From Candidatus Kaiserbacteria bacterium (GTDB taxonomy: Bacteria; Patescibacteriota; Minisyncoccia; Phycocordibacterales; UBA2100), in the NCBI GenBank assembly GCA_017134395.1, contig CP070993.1, positions 526,199-590,198 on the forward strand: a stretch of DNA of 64,000 bases, given 5' to 3'. Positions 5,077 to 60,564 of this stretch are shown here, in pieces. Every line of letters starts with the position of its first letter. Within the stretch, counting starts at the first letter, position 1. The notes under the pieces were generated by a model. The model was given only the letters and a program-made list of their open reading frames with translations. It did no database searches and had not been told where the DNA came from. The position numbers were made by a program, and so were the translations under genes.

Positions 5077-5343
5077 TTACTTCTTTAATCCAAGTGCTTT
5101 TACGAGCTTGCCATATACTTTTGAGTCTTTGCTCTCAAGATACTTAAGGTGCTTGCGGCGATCCGCAACCATCTGTAGAAGACCTCGACGTGAGTGGTTA
5201 TCCTTATGGTTCTTTTTAAGGTGTGAAGCGAGTTCGTCGATACGTTTACTCAAAACTGCCACTTGTGCCTCTGGAGAACCAGTATCACCATCGTGTCGTT
5301 GTCCTTTTTTTAGAGCGTTAGCTTTTTGTCGTTTTGTAAGCAT
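5077..5343 (-). CDS. rpsO: 30S ribosomal protein S15
   Basis: MLTKRQKANALKK…GLLQMVADRRKHLKYL, 88 aa, canonical S15; pnp lies 1.6 kb away on the same strand with two genes between, a loose version of the usual rpsO-pnp linkage. Confidence 0.9.
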   Translation of the reverse strand: MLTKRQKANALKKGQRHDGDTGSPEAQVAVLSKRIDELASHLKKNHKDNHSRRGLLQMVADRRKHLKYLESKDSKVYGKLVKALGLKK

Positions 5344-5496
5344 GATATACACAAAATATGCCCGGTAATTGCTGTACGAGACAACATATCCGGACGTGAG
5401 ACAAATATAGCACAGTTTATATCTATTGGCAACCCCACCCCTCTCTTTTGCGGTTTGCGGGCATTATTACTCACTACTCATGATAAACTATGCATA

Positions 5497-6432
5497 ATGA
5501 GTTCTAGTCTCGAAAATAGTAAGCAAGAGTTCCTTGAATACCTAGAAATTGAGCGAGGGCGTGCTGTGAAGACAGTTGAAAACTATGATCGATACCTTGT
5601 TCGTTTTTTTGACCACACCAAAGTAAAGAACCCGAAAGATATAACTGAAACAAAAGTACGAGAATTCAGGCTTTGGCTTAACAGGCAAGTTACCCAAAAT
5701 GGAACAACAGTAAAGCGTAGAACACAAAACTATTATTTAATTGCTATTCGTGCATTTTTAAAGTTTTTACGAAAACGCGGTATCACGAGTCTTTCTCCTG
5801 AGCGTATTGAATTAGCAAAAGTTTCTCAGCGTGATCTTGATTTAATCACACGTAAAGAACTTCAGCGTCTTCTGGCTGCGCCAATGCGGGCGTATGAAGA
5901 GAGCGAAGATGAAGCAGTTAAATTACGGGCTATTCGTGACAATGCGATGTTACAACTCTTGTTTTCAACAGGCCTTCGTGTTTCAGAACTAACCTCACTA
6001 AATAGCGATATTGATCTTTCGAAAGATGAAATGTCAGTACGCGGTAAGGGTGACAAAGTGCGTGTTGTATTCTTTTCGCCCGAAGCAAAAAAAGCAGTTC
6101 AGAGATATTTAGATGAACGAAAAGATTTAGATGAAGCCCTGTTTGTAAATATGGGTCGCAACGCGAGCGAACACAATGATTTACGTCTTACTCCAAGAAG
6201 TGTGGAACGTGCAGTCAAACACTATGCAACTCGTGCTGGCATTACAAAAACAGTTACACCGCATGGCTTACGGCACAGTTTCGCAACCGATTTATTACAA
6301 AATGGAGCCGACATTCGTAGCGTGCAGGCACTACTTGGGCACGCTAATATTGCAACCACTCAAATATACACACACGTTACGGACAAACACCTTAAGGACA
6401 TTCACAGTAAGTTTCACAATAAAGGAAAGTAA
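5497..6432 (+). CDS. tyrosine site-specific recombinase, XerC/XerD type
   Basis: C-terminal catalytic motifs HGLRHSFATDLL … LLGHANIATTQIYTHV; N-terminal SAM-like domain (FLEYLEIERGRAVKTVENYDRYL). Confidence 0.85.
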   Translation: MSSSLENSKQEFLEYLEIERGRAVKTVENYDRYLVRFFDHTKVKNPKDITETKVREFRLWLNRQVTQNGTTVKRRTQNYYLIAIRAFLKFLRKRGITSLSPERIELAKVSQRDLDLITRKELQRLLAAPMRAYEESEDEAVKLRAIRDNAMLQLLFSTGLRVSELTSLNSDIDLSKDEMSVRGKGDKVRVVFFSPEAKKAVQRYLDERKDLDEALFVNMGRNASEHNDLRLTPRSVERAVKHYATRAGITKTVTPHGLRHSFATDLLQNGADIRSVQALLGHANIATTQIYTHVTDKHLKDIHSKFHNKGK

Positions 6433-6817: not shown

Positions 6818-7627
6818 ATGAGAATTGTTTCATGGAATGTAAACGGACTGCGAGCAGTGCATCGAAAAGGAAACTGGAATGACGTTTTTGCACTTAAGCC
6901 TGATGTTCTTTGTTTACAGGAAATAAAAGCACAAAAAGATCAGTTGCCTGATGATGTTACCGAAGTCGATGGGTTTCATGCGTACTTTAATTCATCACAA
7001 ACAAAGAAAGGTTATGCGGGTACAGCTTTGTACTCGAAAAGGAAACCGCTAAACGTTTCATATGGTTTACCAGACGATATAACTGAGAAACATAGTTTAC
7101 TTACTGATGGATATGGAGAGCCAAACAGAGAAGGGCGCGTGATAACAGCAGAGTTTCCTGAGGTTTTCGTAGTAACAGTGTATACACCTAACACCAAAGA
7201 TGATCTTTCGCGCCTTGAATTACGCCACAAACATTGGGACCCAGCGTTTCTCGAGTACTGTGTAACATTACAAAACAAGAAACCGGTCATATTCTGTGGT
7301 GATTTGAATGTTGCACACAAACCAATTGATCTCGCACGTCCTAAGGAAAATGAGGGGAATAAAGGCTTCACAGTACAAGAACGACAAGGAGTAGATAATA
7401 TGATAGAGGAGGGTTTCATAGACACACTGCGCATGTTTTTTGCTGATACCAAGGATTTATATACGTGGTGGAGTCCATGGAACGGTGCACGAGATCGTAA
7501 TGTTGGATGGCGCATTGATTACGTATTTGTGAGTGAGCAGTTAGAAGACATAGTGCAACATGCAGATATACATCCAGATATACACGGGTCTGACCACTGC
7601 CCGGTGTCGCTAGACGTAGAAATCTAA
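6818..7627 (+). CDS. xth: exodeoxyribonuclease III (AP endonuclease)
   Basis: MRIVSWNVNGLRA…LCLQE…; C-terminal GSDHCPV motif. Confidence 0.9.
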   Translation: MRIVSWNVNGLRAVHRKGNWNDVFALKPDVLCLQEIKAQKDQLPDDVTEVDGFHAYFNSSQTKKGYAGTALYSKRKPLNVSYGLPDDITEKHSLLTDGYGEPNREGRVITAEFPEVFVVTVYTPNTKDDLSRLELRHKHWDPAFLEYCVTLQNKKPVIFCGDLNVAHKPIDLARPKENEGNKGFTVQERQGVDNMIEEGFIDTLRMFFADTKDLYTWWSPWNGARDRNVGWRIDYVFVSEQLEDIVQHADIHPDIHGSDHCPVSLDVEI

Positions 7628-7725
7628 AGGACATTTTATAAAGGACAAATGTCCTTTAGCTCTAACGGACATTTATCCACAAGGACATAGAAAATGTCCT
7701 TTATACATTGTATAATGTCCGATAG
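7625..7725. repeat. GGACAT/ATGTCC palindromic repeat module, copy A
   Basis: taaaggacatttt / ataaaggacaaatgtcctttag / ctctaacggacattt / aaggacatagaaaatgtcctttat / taatgtccgat; same block as at 10410-10511 and 11930-11997. Confidence 0.7.
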
Positions 7726-10109: not shown

Positions 10110-10180
10110 GCGGCTATAGTTTAGTGGTATGACACGTCCTTGCCAAGGATGAGACGGGAGTTCGATTCTCCCTAGCCGCA
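10110..10180 (+). tRNA. tRNA-Gly (anticodon GCC), no encoded CCA
   Basis: acceptor GCGGCTA/TAGCCGC, anticodon stem CGTCC/GGATG with loop TTGCCAA, T-arm GGGAG-TTCGATT-CTCCC. Confidence 0.9.
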
Positions 10181-10181
10181 C

Positions 10182-10228
10182 AAATACACAGAAAGACTAG
10201 GTTCTCGCCTAGTCTTTCTGTGTATTTA
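10182..10228. terminator. hairpin immediately after tRNA-Gly
   Basis: aaatacacagaaagactagg-ttctcg-cctagtctttctgtgtattt (20-bp arms). Confidence 0.6.
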
Positions 10229-10350
10229 GGCATTGTGCATAGAGAATCGAAAGACGGAAGCCTGCGTGCCTAAGCACGAGTAAGGGCTGAGTCCGGCCTG
10301 GAGCACTTAGTAGAATTAAGCCTGAAAGGCGCAAATTATACTTAGTGACT

Positions 10351-10372
10351 GGAGGCGATTCTCCCTAGAAAA
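10351..10372. repeat. partial direct copy of the tRNA-Gly(GCC) T-arm and 3' end
   Basis: ggaggCGATTCTCCCTAGaaaa shares the 13-mer cgattctccctag with tRNA-Gly 10163-10175. Confidence 0.6.
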
Positions 10373-10409: not shown

Positions 10410-10511
10410 TTAAAGGACAAAATTTGTTGATAACTCTGGGGATAGGTGGATAAAGGACATTTCTAACGGACATAAAAATGTCCGTTATCCCCAAAAATGT
10501 CCTTTATCAAC
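10410..10511. repeat. GGACAT/ATGTCC palindromic repeat module, copy B
   Basis: taaaggacaaaattt … ataaaggacatttctaacggacataaaaatgtccgttat … aaaaatgtcctttatc. Confidence 0.7.
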
Positions 10512-10608
10512 AGACTTATGAACAGTTTTATCTTATTTGTGCACATTTGTGTTTCATAAGAAACAATATGAACTTTTCCTAGTATTAGAGCCATTTAACT
10601 CTTCCACA

Positions 10609-10628
10609 TGTTTTCACGTGAAAACATA
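10609..10628. repeat. TTTCACGTGAAA palindromic unit (copy 1)
   Basis: atgttttcacgtgaaaacat, a 20-bp palindrome with a CACGTG core. Confidence 0.7.
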
Positions 10629-10747
10629 GAGAAGATTTAGGACAAGAATGGATGTTGAGGGTGTGAAACAAGCGGGTTCAAAATGACATATTTTCTCTAT
10701 TTTTGCACGTTTGGCCCTAGTTAGTGTGACTTACTGTACTTATTAGT

Positions 10748-10764
10748 ATTTCACGTGAAACTAT
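10748..10764. repeat. TTTCACGTGAAA palindromic unit (copy 2), abutting the 3' end of the K+ channel gene
   Basis: atttcacgtgaaactatg. Confidence 0.7.
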
Positions 10765-11549
10765 GAAGTGAGTGAAGAATGCTTGTGTTTAACTGGCTCA
10801 CCACAGTGTTTACATCGGATTGCGTCGATATCATGAGCGCTTAAGCCACAATTTGGGCATGTATAGTGCACTTTTGCCCCATGAAATATAGTTCTCGTAA
10901 GTTGCAAAAAGAGGGTAATACCTATAAGCATAGCCACCACAGAGAGCATTTTGCCCCACGGTCCTGCAGCTGTGACGTCACCATAGCCAGTTGTTGTAAG
11001 GGTGGAAACAGTGAAGTATAGTGCATCAAGGTAGGAATTTATATGTGGATTGAATTGTGCTTCAGCAACAAAGACTATGGCTGTCATTATTGCGAGAAAC
11101 ACAAAGAAGTTGAGTAGACTTTCAAGAGTTGCGCTGTATTGGTAGATAGTTTTGCTCTCTTTTTTGGCTAAATTCACCAAGTAGTAGGTGCGAAGGATCT
11201 TGAGTGAGCGCAAAACTCGCAAAAGTGCCAAGTTTCCTACCAAAAGTGGTGCAAAGAGTGAGACAATGACTAAAATATCTATTACGCTAAAGACGTTAAA
11301 GACAAACGAGAGCCTTCGGGGTGAAATCCATAAGCGCGCAAGATACTCTAAGAGGAAAAGAGTACCAAATACAATTTCCAGCACCTTCGTGAAAGAATGT
11401 CCTGGATTTGCAGCTTCTAATAGGAAAATGCCAAAAACTGCTACGTTTAAGAGGATAAGCACCCGGTTAAAGATAATGCTTTTACGAGTGCGCTTGTGAA
11501 AGAGAGTAGTGAGTTGCTTTTTTACTTTGGGAAAAGAACTTTTCTTCAT
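10761..11549 (-). CDS. voltage-gated-type (6TM) potassium channel with C-terminal zinc-ribbon
   Basis: K+ selectivity filter TLTTTGYGDVT; S4-like LALLRVLRSLKILR with arginines at every third position; C-terminal CPNCG…CKHCG. Confidence 0.85.
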   Translation of the reverse strand: MKKSSFPKVKKQLTTLFHKRTRKSIIFNRVLILLNVAVFGIFLLEAANPGHSFTKVLEIVFGTLFLLEYLARLWISPRRLSFVFNVFSVIDILVIVSLFAPLLVGNLALLRVLRSLKILRTYYLVNLAKKESKTIYQYSATLESLLNFFVFLAIMTAIVFVAEAQFNPHINSYLDALYFTVSTLTTTGYGDVTAAGPWGKMLSVVAMLIGITLFLQLTRTIFHGAKVHYTCPNCGLSAHDIDAIRCKHCGEPVKHKHSSLTS

Positions 11550-11562
11550 TACAATATGCTAG

Positions 11563-11580
11563 CATAGTTTCACGTGAAAT
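11563..11580. repeat. TTTCACGTGAAA palindromic unit (copy 3) in the 32-bp divergent intergenic region
   Basis: catagtttcacgtgaaat directly upstream of the yraN ATG, next to palindrome atgctagcat. Confidence 0.7.
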
Positions 11581-11581
11581 C

Positions 11582-11968
11582 ATGAGTAGAAACAAAGATA
11601 TTGGGAATACTGGAGAGCACATAGCCGCACGTTTTTTAGAGACGAAGGGGTTTTCTATTTTAGGTAAGAATTACAGCAAGAAATGGGGTGAACTCGACAT
11701 TATTGCTAAGAAAGAAGGAGTAGTGCATTTTGTGGAAGTAAAAACAATTTCACGTGAAACTCAAAACATAGTTTCACGTGAAAATAATTCTGCGTATAGA
11801 GCGGAAGAGAATATGCATAAGAAAAAGATAGAGCGTTTACATAGGGCTATTCAGAGTTATATAGAGGAGTTCAATGTAAAAGAGGATTGGCAGTTAGATT
11901 TAGTGACTGTAGTTCTTTTTATAAAGGACAAAAAAGCTGAGTGTCGATTTGTAGAAAATGTCCTTTAG
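11582..11968 (+). CDS. yraN: YraN-family (UPF0102) endonuclease-like protein
   Basis: EHIAARFLETKGFSILGKNY…GELDIIAKKEGVVHFVEVK; contains an in-frame tandem insertion of the palindromic unit. Confidence 0.75.
   Translation: MSRNKDIGNTGEHIAARFLETKGFSILGKNYSKKWGELDIIAKKEGVVHFVEVKTISRETQNIVSRENNSAYRAEENMHKKKIERLHRAIQSYIEEFNVKEDWQLDLVTVVLFIKDKKAECRFVENVL
11747..11785. repeat. two tandem TTTCACGTGAAA units (copies 4 and 5) inside the yraN coding sequence
   Basis: atttcacgtgaaactcaaaacatagtttcacgtgaaaat, translated in frame as ISRETQNIVSREN. Confidence 0.75.
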
Positions 11969-11997
11969 ATTATAAAGGACATTCTTACGGACATTTT
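11930..11997. repeat. GGACAT/ATGTCC palindromic repeat module, copy C (overlaps the yraN 3' end)
   Basis: ataaaggacaaaaaa … gaaaatgtcctttagattataaaggacattcttacggacatttta. Confidence 0.7.
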
Positions 11998-42764: not shown

Positions 42765-44906
42765 ATGGCTCGTAAACTTCCACTAGATAAACTCCGAAAC
42801 TTCGGAATCGTTGCTCACGTTGACGCTGGTAAAACAACAACCAGTGAGCGTGTTCTCTTTTACACAGGAATGAGCCACAAGATTGGTGAAGTGCACGATG
42901 GAGAGACGGTCACTGACTGGATGGAGCAAGAACGAGAACGTGGTATCACTATTACTGCAGCCGCTATTTCATGTGACTGGCAGCCTACCTACGACAGAGA
43001 AGACGAAAGCAAGAAGCACGCATTTAACATCATCGACACTCCAGGTCACATCGACTTCACCGCAGAAGTAAAGCGTTCTATGCGCGTGCTCGACGGAGCA
43101 GTTGTTGTGTTCGATGCTGTTGCCGGAGTTGAACCACAGTCAGAAACAAACTGGCGATATGCTGAGGAAGCAAACGTGCCACGTATTTGTTTTATTAACA
43201 AACTAGACCGAACAGGCGCTTCATTCGAACGTTCATACCAGAGTGTTCTCGACAGACTTTCAAATAAGGCAATTCGTGCACAGCTCCCTATTGGAGAAGA
43301 AGAAAACCACGAAGGGGTTGTCGACCTCCTTTCAATGAAATCATTCCGTTTCGAAGGGAACATGGGCATGGACATCATAGAAGGAGACGTGCCAGAAAAT
43401 ATGGTTGCAGATGCTGAAAAGTATCGAGGCGAATTAATCGAAAAAATTGTTGAGCAAGACGAGGAAGCGATGAACGCATACCTTGAAGGTAACGAACCAT
43501 CGTACGAAGAACTGAAAGCATTGCTCCGTAAGGCAGTTATCGCAAACGAAGTATTTCTTGTGTACTGTGGGTCAGCTTTGAAGAATAAAGGAGTACAATT
43601 GGTACTTGATGCCGTTGTCGACTACCTCCCGTCACCACTTGATCTTCCTCCAGTAACTGGAACAGACCCAAAAACAGGAGAAGAGGTAAGCCGAGCACCA
43701 AGTGATGAAGAACCGCTTGCTGCGCTGGCTTTCAAGCTACAAACAGACCCGTTCGTCGGGCAACTTACATTCTTCCGAGTGTATTCAGGAGTATTTAAAT
43801 CTGGTTCATACGTATATAACGCATCAACTGGAAGCAAGGAGCGTGTGGGACGTATTGTGCGTCTTCAGGCTGACAAGCGAGAAGAAGTTGAAGAAGTATA
43901 CACGGGAGAAATTGCAGCCGCTGTTGGTCTAAAGGACACAAAAACAAGCCATACACTCTGTGATGAGGCGAATCCTATTGTTCTTGAAGAAATGACATTC
44001 CCAGAACCTGTGGTTGCCGCAAGAATTGAACCAAAGACGAAACAAGACCAAGAGAAGATGGGTATTGCCCTTAACAAACTCTCAGATGAAGACCCGACTT
44101 TTAAAGTGTCGACTGACACAGAAACAATGGAAACAATTATTGCTGGAATGGGTGAGCTTCACCTAGAAATTCTTGTAGACCGTATGAAGCGAGAATTCAA
44201 CGTTGAAGCAGATCTTGGTAAGCCACAGGTTGCTTACCGAGAAACAATCCAGGGAACAAACGAAGCAGAAGTGAAATACATCAAGCAAACTGGTGGTCGC
44301 GGACAGTACGGACACGTTAAGTTGCGCATCAAGCCACTTGAGGCGGTTGATCCTGAAGCAAAAGTACCTAAGAACATTGACCGAGAAGACCACTTCGAAT
44401 TTGTTAACAACATTAAGGGGGGTGTTATTCCAAGCGAGTACATACCTGCTATTAAGAAGGGTATTAAAGAGGCTATGGAACGAGGAATCGTTGCAGGATA
44501 TGCAATGGTAGATATCTCGATAGATCTATTCGATGGCTCGTTCCATGATGTTGACTCATCAGAAATTGCCTTCAAAATTGCTGCATCACAAGCATTTCAA
44601 GAAGTTGCCAAAGGAGCACAGCCAGTATTGCTCGAACCTATTATGAAGGTCGAAGTCACCACACCAGAGCAGTTTATGGGAGATGTAAACGGAAATCTGA
44701 ACTCTATGCGGGGACAGGTAGAGGGTATGGATGATCGTGGTAATGCAAAAGTTATTACAGCAAAAGTGCCACTTTCTGAGATGTTTGGGTACACAACCAC
44801 ACTGCGGTCTATGACCGAAGGACGAGCGAATGCAACTATGGAGTTCTCACACTACGCTGTGGTTCCACACAACGTAGCAGAAGAAATCAAAACTGCTCGT
44901 TCGTAG
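42765..44906 (+). CDS. fusA: elongation factor G
   Basis: [20 protein letters not shown]…, 713 aa, five-domain EF-G. Confidence 0.96.
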
Positions 44907-59398: not shown

Positions 59399-59989
59399 AT
59401 GTATGGAAAGAAACAGGTGCTTGTTATTGCAGGTCCCACGGCAAGCGGAGAGAGTACATTTACTCGCGAGCTCATAGATTCTTTTGATAATTTTACTAAG
59501 TTGATTTCAGCAACTACGCGAAAACCGCGTTTAAATGAACAACATGGTGTTGATTATTATTTCTTTACTAAAGAGGAATTCTTTAAGGAGGTTGAGGCTG
59601 GCAATATCATTGAGCACACGCATGTAGCAAACAGAGATGCCTATTACGGTGCGTATAAACCAGACCTCGACGCGAAACTCATTAAACATCTCAATGTCAT
59701 AGCAAATACTGATCCGAAGGGCGCTAAATTCTTTAAAGATAATTACGGGGCTACAACAATTTTTTTACGACCAAAATCTTTAGAAGTTATTGAGGACAGG
59801 TTACGACGGCGTGATCCAGATATTACCGAAGAGGAAGTACAGAAGCGTGTTTTGAGTGCCAAAAAAGAAATAGAGGAAGCAGAGGGGCGTTTCGACCATA
59901 TTGTATGGAATACAGACGGGGAGTTTGCTGACACCATATTTAATGTGGTTGAGATTTTGAAGCAAGAAGGCTATAGTGTCCCGGAATAA
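59399..59989 (+). CDS. guanylate kinase-family protein with non-canonical P-loop (GPTASGES)
   Basis: GMK signatures ATTRKPRLNEQHGVDYYF; Walker-A Lys replaced by Glu. Confidence 0.7.
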   Translation: MYGKKQVLVIAGPTASGESTFTRELIDSFDNFTKLISATTRKPRLNEQHGVDYYFFTKEEFFKEVEAGNIIEHTHVANRDAYYGAYKPDLDAKLIKHLNVIANTDPKGAKFFKDNYGATTIFLRPKSLEVIEDRLRRRDPDITEEEVQKRVLSAKKEIEEAEGRFDHIVWNTDGEFADTIFNVVEILKQEGYSVPE

Positions 59990-59994
59990 CTAAT

Positions 59995-60564
59995 ATGCAT
60001 CTGAAAAATATAGTAATTATTTCTGGGCCATCTGGTGCTGGCGAGGACTCTGTTATTGAAGGTCTGAGTGAGCACGTAACAGTGAATCGAGTAATAACTA
60101 CTACGACACGAAGTCCAAGAGAGGGAGAGAGTGATGGCGAGGATCATTACTTTATTTCGAAAGAGGATTTTGAGGAACGTATCGAAAGTGGCTCAATGAT
60201 AGAATGGGCAAAACAATACAATGGGAACTTTTATGGTGTTACAAAAGAAGAGCTGCAACGAGTAAATGATCTAGATGGAGTTGGAGTATGGAAAATTGAA
60301 TATCAAGGAGTTATTACTGCAAAGAAACTTTTCCCAGACATAATATCCATATTTCTCATGGCGGAGTCACTTGAGGTGTTAGAAGACCGTATAAGGGCCC
60401 GTTCTGATGTTTCAGAAGAGTTTATAGCTGAGCGTATGAAATATACGCAAGAGTGGCTCAAACACGCTGATATATACGATTATTCACTTATTAATAAACA
60501 AGGACTGTTACACGAGACTATACAGGAGGTCGTGGACATTCTTCGTAAAGAACAGTATCTTTAA
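59995..60564 (+). CDS. guanylate kinase-family protein, second paralog, with non-canonical P-loop (GPSGAGED)
   Basis: TTTRSPREGESDGEDHYF; Walker-A Lys replaced by Glu and Ser/Thr by Asp. Confidence 0.7.
   Translation: MHLKNIVIISGPSGAGEDSVIEGLSEHVTVNRVITTTTRSPREGESDGEDHYFISKEDFEERIESGSMIEWAKQYNGNFYGVTKEELQRVNDLDGVGVWKIEYQGVITAKKLFPDIISIFLMAESLEVLEDRIRARSDVSEEFIAERMKYTQEWLKHADIYDYSLINKQGLLHETIQEVVDILRKEQYL

Follow-up and report, generated by a model that had tools for sequence, protein, structure and literature searches.

Bacteria separate newly copied chromosomes by means of parS sites, centromere-like sequences that serve as DNA handles and on which dimers of ParB load. In the ParABS system, ParB recognizes the palindrome TTTCAC-GTGAAA, closes as a cytidine triphosphate (CTP)-dependent clamp and slides onto flanking DNA. 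The chromosomal parS consensus is TGTTTCAC-GTGAAACA with a 14-bp core GTTTCACGTGAAAC, and the Noc-binding site (NBS), TATTTCCC-GGGAAATA, differs from it at half-site positions 1 and 6 (ParB/Noc specificity study, 10.1101/724823). Streptococcus pneumoniae has four origin-proximal parS sites (PMC4488948). In Pseudomonas aeruginosa, parS1-4 lie close to oriC, and GTTTCAC is one parS half-site variant enriched at ParB peaks in chromatin immunoprecipitation sequencing (PMC5961200). Here we describe a cluster of five parS-like palindromes, situated before and inside the gene yraN, in a 64-kb stretch of DNA (hereafter the window; contig CP070993.1, positions 526,199 to 590,198) from a Candidatus Kaiserbacteria bacterium of the Patescibacteria.

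We interpret the five palindromes as a probable cluster of chromosomal parS sites, that is, an origin-proximal centromere, and put the probability of this assignment at roughly 0.8. The observations behind it are identity with the parS core, clustering, exclusivity to one locus, deep positional conservation, selection on the DNA at codon level and an origin-like context. Because neither the window nor the loci of its relatives contained a ParB gene, we infer ParB binding from sequence and conservation; clamp loading and a function in chromosome segregation are proposed by analogy with ParABS.

The palindromes share the parS core

A search of the entire window retrieved exactly five copies of the 12-mer TTTCACGTGAAA, at 10612-10623, 10749-10760, 11568-11579, 11748-11759 and 11772-11783. 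No additional copy appeared in the 64 kb when one mismatch was allowed; the expected number was 0.43, and five were reached in none of 100 shuffles. A first-pass annotation of the window had reported a five-copy cluster within ~1.2 kb and had considered its density beyond chance, and both statements were borne out. Its placement of the copies was equally accurate: copy 2 adjoins the stop codon of a K+ channel gene, copy 3 occupies the 32-bp spacer between this gene and yraN, and copies 4 and 5 are in frame within yraN. The coordinates and anatomy of all sites are collected in Table 1. Sites 4 and 5 are spaced 24 bp apart.

The 12-mer is the center of the consensus parS and is exact in 5/5 sites. 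Consistently, CACGTG forms the center of all five, and the parS-type inner base A was found in 10/10 half-sites. The outer positions are more variable. Copies 2-5 each contain one complete GTTTCAC arm, the outer G of the other arm being replaced by A or T. The outer G is thus present in 4 of the 10 half-sites in the window, and each site carries 2-4 mismatches to the 16-mer, all of them at outer positions. Two other identities for the palindrome were considered and rejected, namely a Noc-binding site, as the center is CACGTG and not CCCGGG, and a restriction site, as CACGTG is not avoided (22 copies versus ~11 expected).

The first-pass annotation, in which parS was not recognized, had also described a CATAG flank as part of the repeated unit. 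Copies 2 (on the reverse strand), 3 and 5 carry such a flank; copy 1 forms a perfect 20-bp palindrome. Together with their CATAG flanks, copies 2 and 3 constitute a perfect 18-bp inverted repeat (10748-10765 and 11563-11580) that encloses the channel open reading frame (ORF), its arms falling almost precisely at the stop and the start. Relatives do not keep the CATAG flank. Local duplication or gene conversion is the probable source of this flank and of the 18-bp inverted repeat.

The array is conserved in position among relatives

To compare the locus with those of relatives, we used a YraN alignment to scan a single genome of each species, which yielded 80 loci (1.17 Mb) from Paceibacteria-type Patescibacteria with YraN identities of 44-68%. 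These loci contained 82 exact 12-mers, all of which fell in the interval from -2856 to +196 relative to the start of yraN. Thirty-three of the 82 lay at -150 to -1, 25 were within the gene and none was downstream of it. With up to two mismatches allowed, the 16-mer matched 182 times, and 176 of these matches were confined to the region from -3000 to +400. Divided by zone, 119 matches occurred in 48 kb (-200 to +400), 57 in 194 kb (-3000 to -200) and 6 in the other 927 kb, corresponding to 2.5 matches per kb at the locus and 0.0065 per kb outside it. At least one such match was present in 68/80 loci.

Eleven of the 182 matches were perfect 16-mers, and pooling the flanks of the sites gave the consensus tG-TTTCAC-GTGAAA-Ca, which equals canonical parS. 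Among 120 half-sites upstream of yraN in relatives, G stood at half-site position 1 in 74 and was preceded by T in 49. The variant with one extra T per arm seen in site 1 of the window recurred in three loci (L001, L002 and L013). Two elements that had been missed by the first-pass annotation were also recovered by comparison: the decayed site at 10550-10565 aligned with an intact TTTCACGTGAAA in L002, and the half-site at 10661-10668 was invariant in three species (window, L001 and L002). Collectively, these data suggest that the cluster in the window is one instance of an old, position-conserved parS array.

Two sites are kept in the yraN reading frame

The YraN protein encoded in the window is 100% identical to a database protein of a Candidatus Kaiserbacteria metagenome-assembled genome. 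According to the ORF table, copies 4 and 5 encode I56-S-R-E-T60 and V64-S-R-E-N68, which together give ISRETQNIVSREN at residues 56-68 and confirm the in-frame duplicated peptide reported in the first-pass annotation. The frame used is GTT TCA CGT GAA AC, read as Val/Ile-Ser-Arg-Glu-Thr/Asn. In relatives, exact in-gene copies were found at nt 166 in 17 loci, at nt 190 in 6 and at nt 193-196 in 2, and the positions nt 166 and nt 190 coincide with the two copies of the window. Many YraN homologs have [V/I]SRE[T/N] at the same codons, and classical YraN proteins are without a 15-20-residue stretch following the catalytic E-V-K motif. The idea of a lineage-specific 13-aa insertion was therefore abandoned, since orthologs across the group have [V/I]SRE at the same codons. 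Nor was the same peptide seen to arise from unrelated DNA in these orthologs; it is the same DNA that encodes it.

Codon choice further supported this observation. SRE in yraN was encoded by TCACGTGAA in 35/58 cases, compared with 2.3% predicted from local codon usage, and the remaining codings were mostly one-base variants of it, indicating that selection acts on the DNA. The AlphaFold model of YraN had a mean predicted local distance difference test (pLDDT) score of 84.8, with residues 60-69 below 50. In this model, the first coded peptide starts on the last residues of the β-strand that follows the E-V-K motif, and from about residue 58 the chain enters a poorly constrained loop that contains the entire second coded peptide. 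Constraints on DNA and on protein can thus coexist here. We take the DNA signal to be the selected feature, with the YraN protein tolerating the coded peptide.

The locus has origin-like features

A second motif, the asymmetric 9-mer TGTCC[G/T]TTA, was found 14 times in the window versus 1.06 expected, in clusters at 7625-7703, 10411-10506 and 11922-11981 and once more at 43930. Over the window and the 80 loci, 363 of 373 copies lay within -5000 to +600 of yraN, a density ~100 times that elsewhere. The 9-mers of relatives are arranged in 2-4 clusters in both orientations, those at +340 to +430 match cluster C of the window, and co-clustering with the palindromes was seen in nearly all relatives. 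This 9-mer may be an origin or initiator box.

DnaA-box-like sequences are present in the same region. With up to one mismatch, 15 matches to the DnaA box were detected in the window, four of them within 88 bp (10425-10512) and ~100 bp from site 1. This cluster is part of a ~130-bp non-coding block conserved in three species (window, L001 and L002) and lies 2.8 kb from the only perfect DnaA box of the window. Similar clusters were present in L001, L002, L013 and L052, and most other relatives were without one. Two loci of relatives, L062 and L069, contain dnaA, and domain IV of both DnaA proteins keeps the RDHTTV region, the DNA-contact motif of E. coli DnaA. We considered TGTCCTTTA as a variant DnaA box read through changed DnaA contacts and rejected it on the grounds of this retained region.

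GC skew changes sign at the locus. When aggregated over the loci in 1-kb bins, the skew was negative in nearly all bins from -10 to -2 kb and positive in all bins from 0 to +9 kb. Far-flank means were -0.045 (-10 to -5 kb) and +0.029 (+2 to +10 kb), and the right flank exceeded the left in 31/36 loci (paired t-test, p = 2.6e-7, a value that overstates independence as the loci are related). Gene-strand bias differed little between the two flanks (0.40 versus 0.48). Within the window itself, the skew was negative at 1-5 kb and positive from ~5 kb, apart from a dip at 16-24 kb, a stretch of minus-strand genes. A gene-strand switch near 23.5 kb was rejected as an origin because no DnaA boxes were found there.

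Additionally, dnaA is located 3.7 kb (L069) and 8 kb (L062) downstream of yraN, and in two complete chromosomes the distance of yraN from the start of the record is 17 and 27 kb. We infer from these sequence features that the locus is at or next to a replication origin, which is where parS is expected. A more specific proposal is tentative, and we give it slightly less than even odds: the cca-tRNA-yraN locus would be the replication origin of Paceibacteria-type Patescibacteria, unlinked to dnaA and organized by a previously undescribed TGTCC[G/T]TTA box (2-4 clusters over ~5 kb) bound by a DnaA of variant specificity or by an unknown origin factor, with the parS centromere embedded in it, partly in the yraN frame.

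Searches for ParB and weighing of alternatives

We searched the window and the 80 loci for ParB, ParA and DnaA with regular expressions for ParB box II, the ParA Walker A motif and the DnaA signature. The matches were the dnaA genes of L062 and L069 and one spurious 92-aa ORF antisense to yraN. A hidden Markov model (HMM) built from 120 bona fide ParB proteins gave a best E-value of 0.31 against all six-frame ORFs of the window and the 80 loci. A database search with a consensus ParB returned matches from Firmicutes and Pseudomonas, the lineage not being sampled by this search. ORF families upstream of yraN in relatives (helix-turn-helix and TrmB-like) were considered as ParB candidates and rejected, as they showed no resemblance by eye and no match to the ParB HMM; their representatives were not scanned with Pfam.

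Several points weigh against the parS assignment. First, none of the five sites in the window is perfect as a 14-mer or a 16-mer, and the mismatches include the outer G that contributes to ParB/Noc discrimination. Second, neither ParB nor ParA was found to be encoded in the 64 kb of the window or, in any of the 80 loci, within 10 kb of yraN. This absence is weak evidence, since ~2-3% of each relative's genome was sampled and ~2 ParB genes would be expected in the sample if every genome held one at a random place. Third, the window contains no dnaA from -11.5 kb to +52 kb of yraN, and a literature search found no report of ParB, parS or oriC in Patescibacteria. Fourth, counts and p-values overstate independence, given the shared phylogeny and partial synteny of the loci. 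Finally, in many genomes a site lies directly at the start of yraN, a placement equally compatible with an operator. With regard to the third point, adjacency to dnaA is common but not obligatory for oriC.

The strongest of the alternatives, although unlikely, is that a dedicated transcription factor, or YraN itself, uses the palindrome as its operator and controls yraN and, here, the divergent channel gene, and that the likeness to parS is resemblance only. Such an operator would fit the tight linkage of the motif to one gene across the group, the 33 of 82 exact copies located just before yraN in relatives, and the position of copy 3 in the window, which lies just past the promoter-like TACAAT and fills the divergent spacer. 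That no ParB was found nearby points in the same direction. However, 11 perfect 16-bp parS sequences in relatives and pooled flanks that reproduce the parS consensus are an unlikely coincidence for an unrelated regulator. Copies lie as far as ~1 kb (window) or 2.9 kb (relatives) from the start of yraN, in arrays of 4-6, and others lie inside the coding sequence at fixed codons, which argues further against an operator. Moreover, the linkage to yraN exists within a larger conserved block (xerC/D-xth-cca-tRNA-yraN) with origin-like features and does not require regulation.

Equally to be weighed, and in our judgment improbable, is a lineage that has lost ParB, in which another factor associated with the origin binds the conserved parS-like palindromes and the array serves origin organization or replication control instead of ParABS segregation. 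Compatible with this are the lack of ParB and ParA in the 1.23 Mb around the locus, the relaxed outer, ParB-specific positions of the sites in the window and the co-clustering of the unexplained 9-mer with the palindromes. Against it stand the small share of each genome that was sampled and the retention of a perfect canonical 16-mer in many relatives, which is hard to explain without a co-evolved protein.

A mobile palindrome resembling repetitive extragenic palindromic (REP) sequences or miniature inverted-repeat transposable elements (MITEs), which had spread locally and invaded yraN as the first-pass annotation had suggested, is scarcely credible: the shared but unconserved CATAG flank and the 18-bp inverted repeat around the channel gene suggest local duplication or gene conversion, but there are no dispersed copies in the 64 kb or in the 927 kb of flanks (6/182 matches), the in-gene positions are orthologous across 44-68% YraN identity, neither terminal repeats beyond the palindrome nor target duplications are present, and the age and fixed position of the array exclude a dispersed element.

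The channel gene and other features of the region

The channel gene was identified by Pfam and NCBIfam as encoding a channel-like protein with a zinc ribbon, in agreement with the first-pass annotation. It is present in only 4/81 loci (window, L001, L002 and L013), compared with 68/80 for the motif cluster, and the bracketing of the channel by the palindromes is thus a by-product. The proposal of a transcription-factor site bracketing this gene accordingly survived in part: the palindrome is most likely a protein-binding site, but not a regulator site for the channel gene. We regard the gene as a passenger inserted in an older parS-bearing spacer between the cca/tRNA genes and yraN, and not as part of the centromere. 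The 18-bp inverted repeat around this rare gene suggests insertion at parS sites, or gene conversion between them.

The spacer between the two divergent genes (11550-11581) also contains the palindrome ATGCTAGCAT, at 11556-11565, adjoining parS copy 3 and conserved in L002 (9976-9986). The -10 elements of yraN and of the channel gene, in divergent orientation, may overlap within it. A promoter-like sequence for yraN, TTGGGA-17-TACAAT, was recognized by consensus match; on the transcription start predicted from this match, copy 3 would lie ~5-17 nt past the start. To this extent, the expectation that a promoter or regulatory site would sit over the repeats held, as the spacer copy overlaps promoter space defined by the consensus match.

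Table 1 Features of the parS-like array and its surroundings (positions in the window)
Feature	Coordinates	Strand	Description
parS-like site 1	10608..10627		ATGTTTTCACGTGAAAACAT, perfect 20-bp palindrome; 12-bp core exact, one extra T per arm relative to canonical TGTTTCAC
parS-like site 2	10747..10762		TATTTCACGTGAAACT, 2 mismatches to the 16-mer; adjoins channel stop codon
parS-like site 3	11566..11581		AGTTTCACGTGAAATC, in the 32-bp divergent spacer directly before the yraN ATG
parS-like site 4	11746..11761		Coding, yraN nt 166, codons 56-60, ISRET
parS-like site 5	11770..11785		Coding, yraN nt 190, codons 64-68, VSREN; in low-confidence, likely disordered YraN loop
Decayed parS	10550..10565		TGTTTCATAAGAAACA, 3 mismatches, central CACGTG lost
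parS half-site	10661..10668		GTGAAACA (reverse complement TGTTTCAC)
Voltage-gated K+ channel-like gene	10761..11549	-	Ion_trans and C-terminal zinc ribbon (Pfam, NCBIfam)
Promoter-like TTGGGA-17-TACAAT for yraN	11527..11555	+	Consensus match only; inside the 5' end of the channel ORF
yraN (UPF0102 nuclease family)	11582..11968	+	Pfam PF02021 at 3.6e-19; two in-frame parS sites
Origin box cluster A (candidate)	7625..7703		Five TGTCC[G/T]TTA and the window's only perfect DnaA box, TTATCCACA, at 7673-7681
Origin box cluster B (candidate)	10411..10512		Five TGTCC[G/T]TTA interleaved with four DnaA-box-like 9-mers (TTATCAACA, TTATCCACC, TTATCCCCA, TTATCAACA)
Box cluster C	11922..11981		Three TGTCCTTTA 9-mers across the yraN stop codon; C-terminal ENVL-stop = GAAAATGTCCTTTAG

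By ORF clustering, the conserved block comprises a xerC/D-like recombinase gene, exonuclease III (xth), the CCA-adding enzyme (minus strand), tRNA genes, yraN and tRNA-Pro; the CCA enzyme is present in 67/81 loci. The Xer-type tyrosine recombinase of the window is encoded at 5326-6432, ~5 kb from the putative origin (NCBIfam XerA-type, 244 bits, above cutoff). It belongs to the conserved block in 30 loci, an unusual neighborhood for the gene of a chromosome-dimer resolvase.

Other features were noted in the same region. A search for structured RNA in the 580-bp non-coding stretch with Rfam gave tRNAs only. The 3' end of tRNA-Gly(GCC) (10110-10181), CGATTCTCCCTAG, recurs 193 bp downstream in a T-arm-like stretch (10340-10368), and the repeat is kept in L002. 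Rfam and ARAGORN reported nothing at 10340-10368; the stretch may be left over from a tRNA or from an old integration event, or may encode a small RNA. Immediately after tRNA-Gly, a perfect 20-bp inverted repeat with a 6-nt loop (10182-10227) is probably a transcription terminator or a processing hairpin. Farther away, two adjacent genes of the guanylate-kinase family (196 and 189 aa) stand in tandem at 59399-60564, after a ribosomal protein operon.

Discussion

By analogy with ParABS, ParB dimers would nucleate on the five or six sites of the array, close into CTP-dependent clamps and spread onto the flanking DNA. Closely spaced sites would assemble one partition complex beside the replication origin, which would be segregated by ParA and could recruit SMC. 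More speculatively, the site before the yraN start may make transcription of yraN and of the channel gene sensitive to ParB occupancy.

Once recognized, the motif itself is ordinary: parS is a known element, found here in a new lineage and in an unusual conserved setting. What is possibly new is that these uncultured ultra-small bacteria have their centromere before and inside yraN, a landmark that is constant and easy to locate. The maintenance of two sites in a protein-coding frame over deep divergence may also be new, and would clearly exemplify a peptide dictated by a DNA signal. These few kb further combine origin-like features with an unexplained conserved 9-mer, and this surrounding block, which may be an origin region with an undescribed 9-mer box, is the more interesting lead. 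If the locus is indeed both origin and centromere, a small block would contain the cis elements for replication and segregation in a group without genetic tools, and would offer a starting point for replicating vectors and for metagenomic estimates of replication rate in Patescibacteria. A literature search turned up no paper on either subject in this group.

The origin-like part of the locus resembles the bipartite oriC of Bacillus subtilis and Helicobacter pylori in having two or three clusters of short asymmetric boxes in neighboring intergenic regions, with DnaA-box-like 9-mers, a sign change of GC skew and parS alongside. It differs in that the flanked genes are cca, tRNA genes and yraN instead of dnaA, and in that the dominant box is TGTCC[G/T]TTA and not TTATCCACA. 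With Noc-binding sites, the palindromes share length, symmetry and the TTT/AAA arms, and three half-sites in the window have an NBS-like outer A, whereas the discriminating inner base is of the parS type in every half-site.

Like the parS arrays of S. pneumoniae and P. aeruginosa, the array consists of several sites of unequal quality close together near an origin, with half-sites nearby. In contrast to these, its host is an uncultured member of the Patescibacteria with a ~0.69-Mb genome, its spacing is tighter, with sites 4 and 5 only 24 bp apart, and it is interleaved with a second conserved 9-mer. Compared with the chromosomal parS of ParABS systems (Spo0J/ParB of B. subtilis and ParB of Caulobacter crescentus), the array departs from the consensus at relaxed outer positions, with G in only one half of each of copies 2-5 and an extra T in each arm of copy 1. 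It does not adjoin parAB or dnaA but is anchored in the cca-tRNA-yraN block, two of its sites hold constant positions in the yraN frame throughout the group, and the cognate ParB was not seen in the window or the loci. Nevertheless, the central 12 bp are identical to those of chromosomal parS, and the sites are palindromic, few and clustered within ~1.2 kb beside an origin-like region. As in those systems, some of them lie in coding sequence, and perfect 16-mers stand at orthologous places in relatives.

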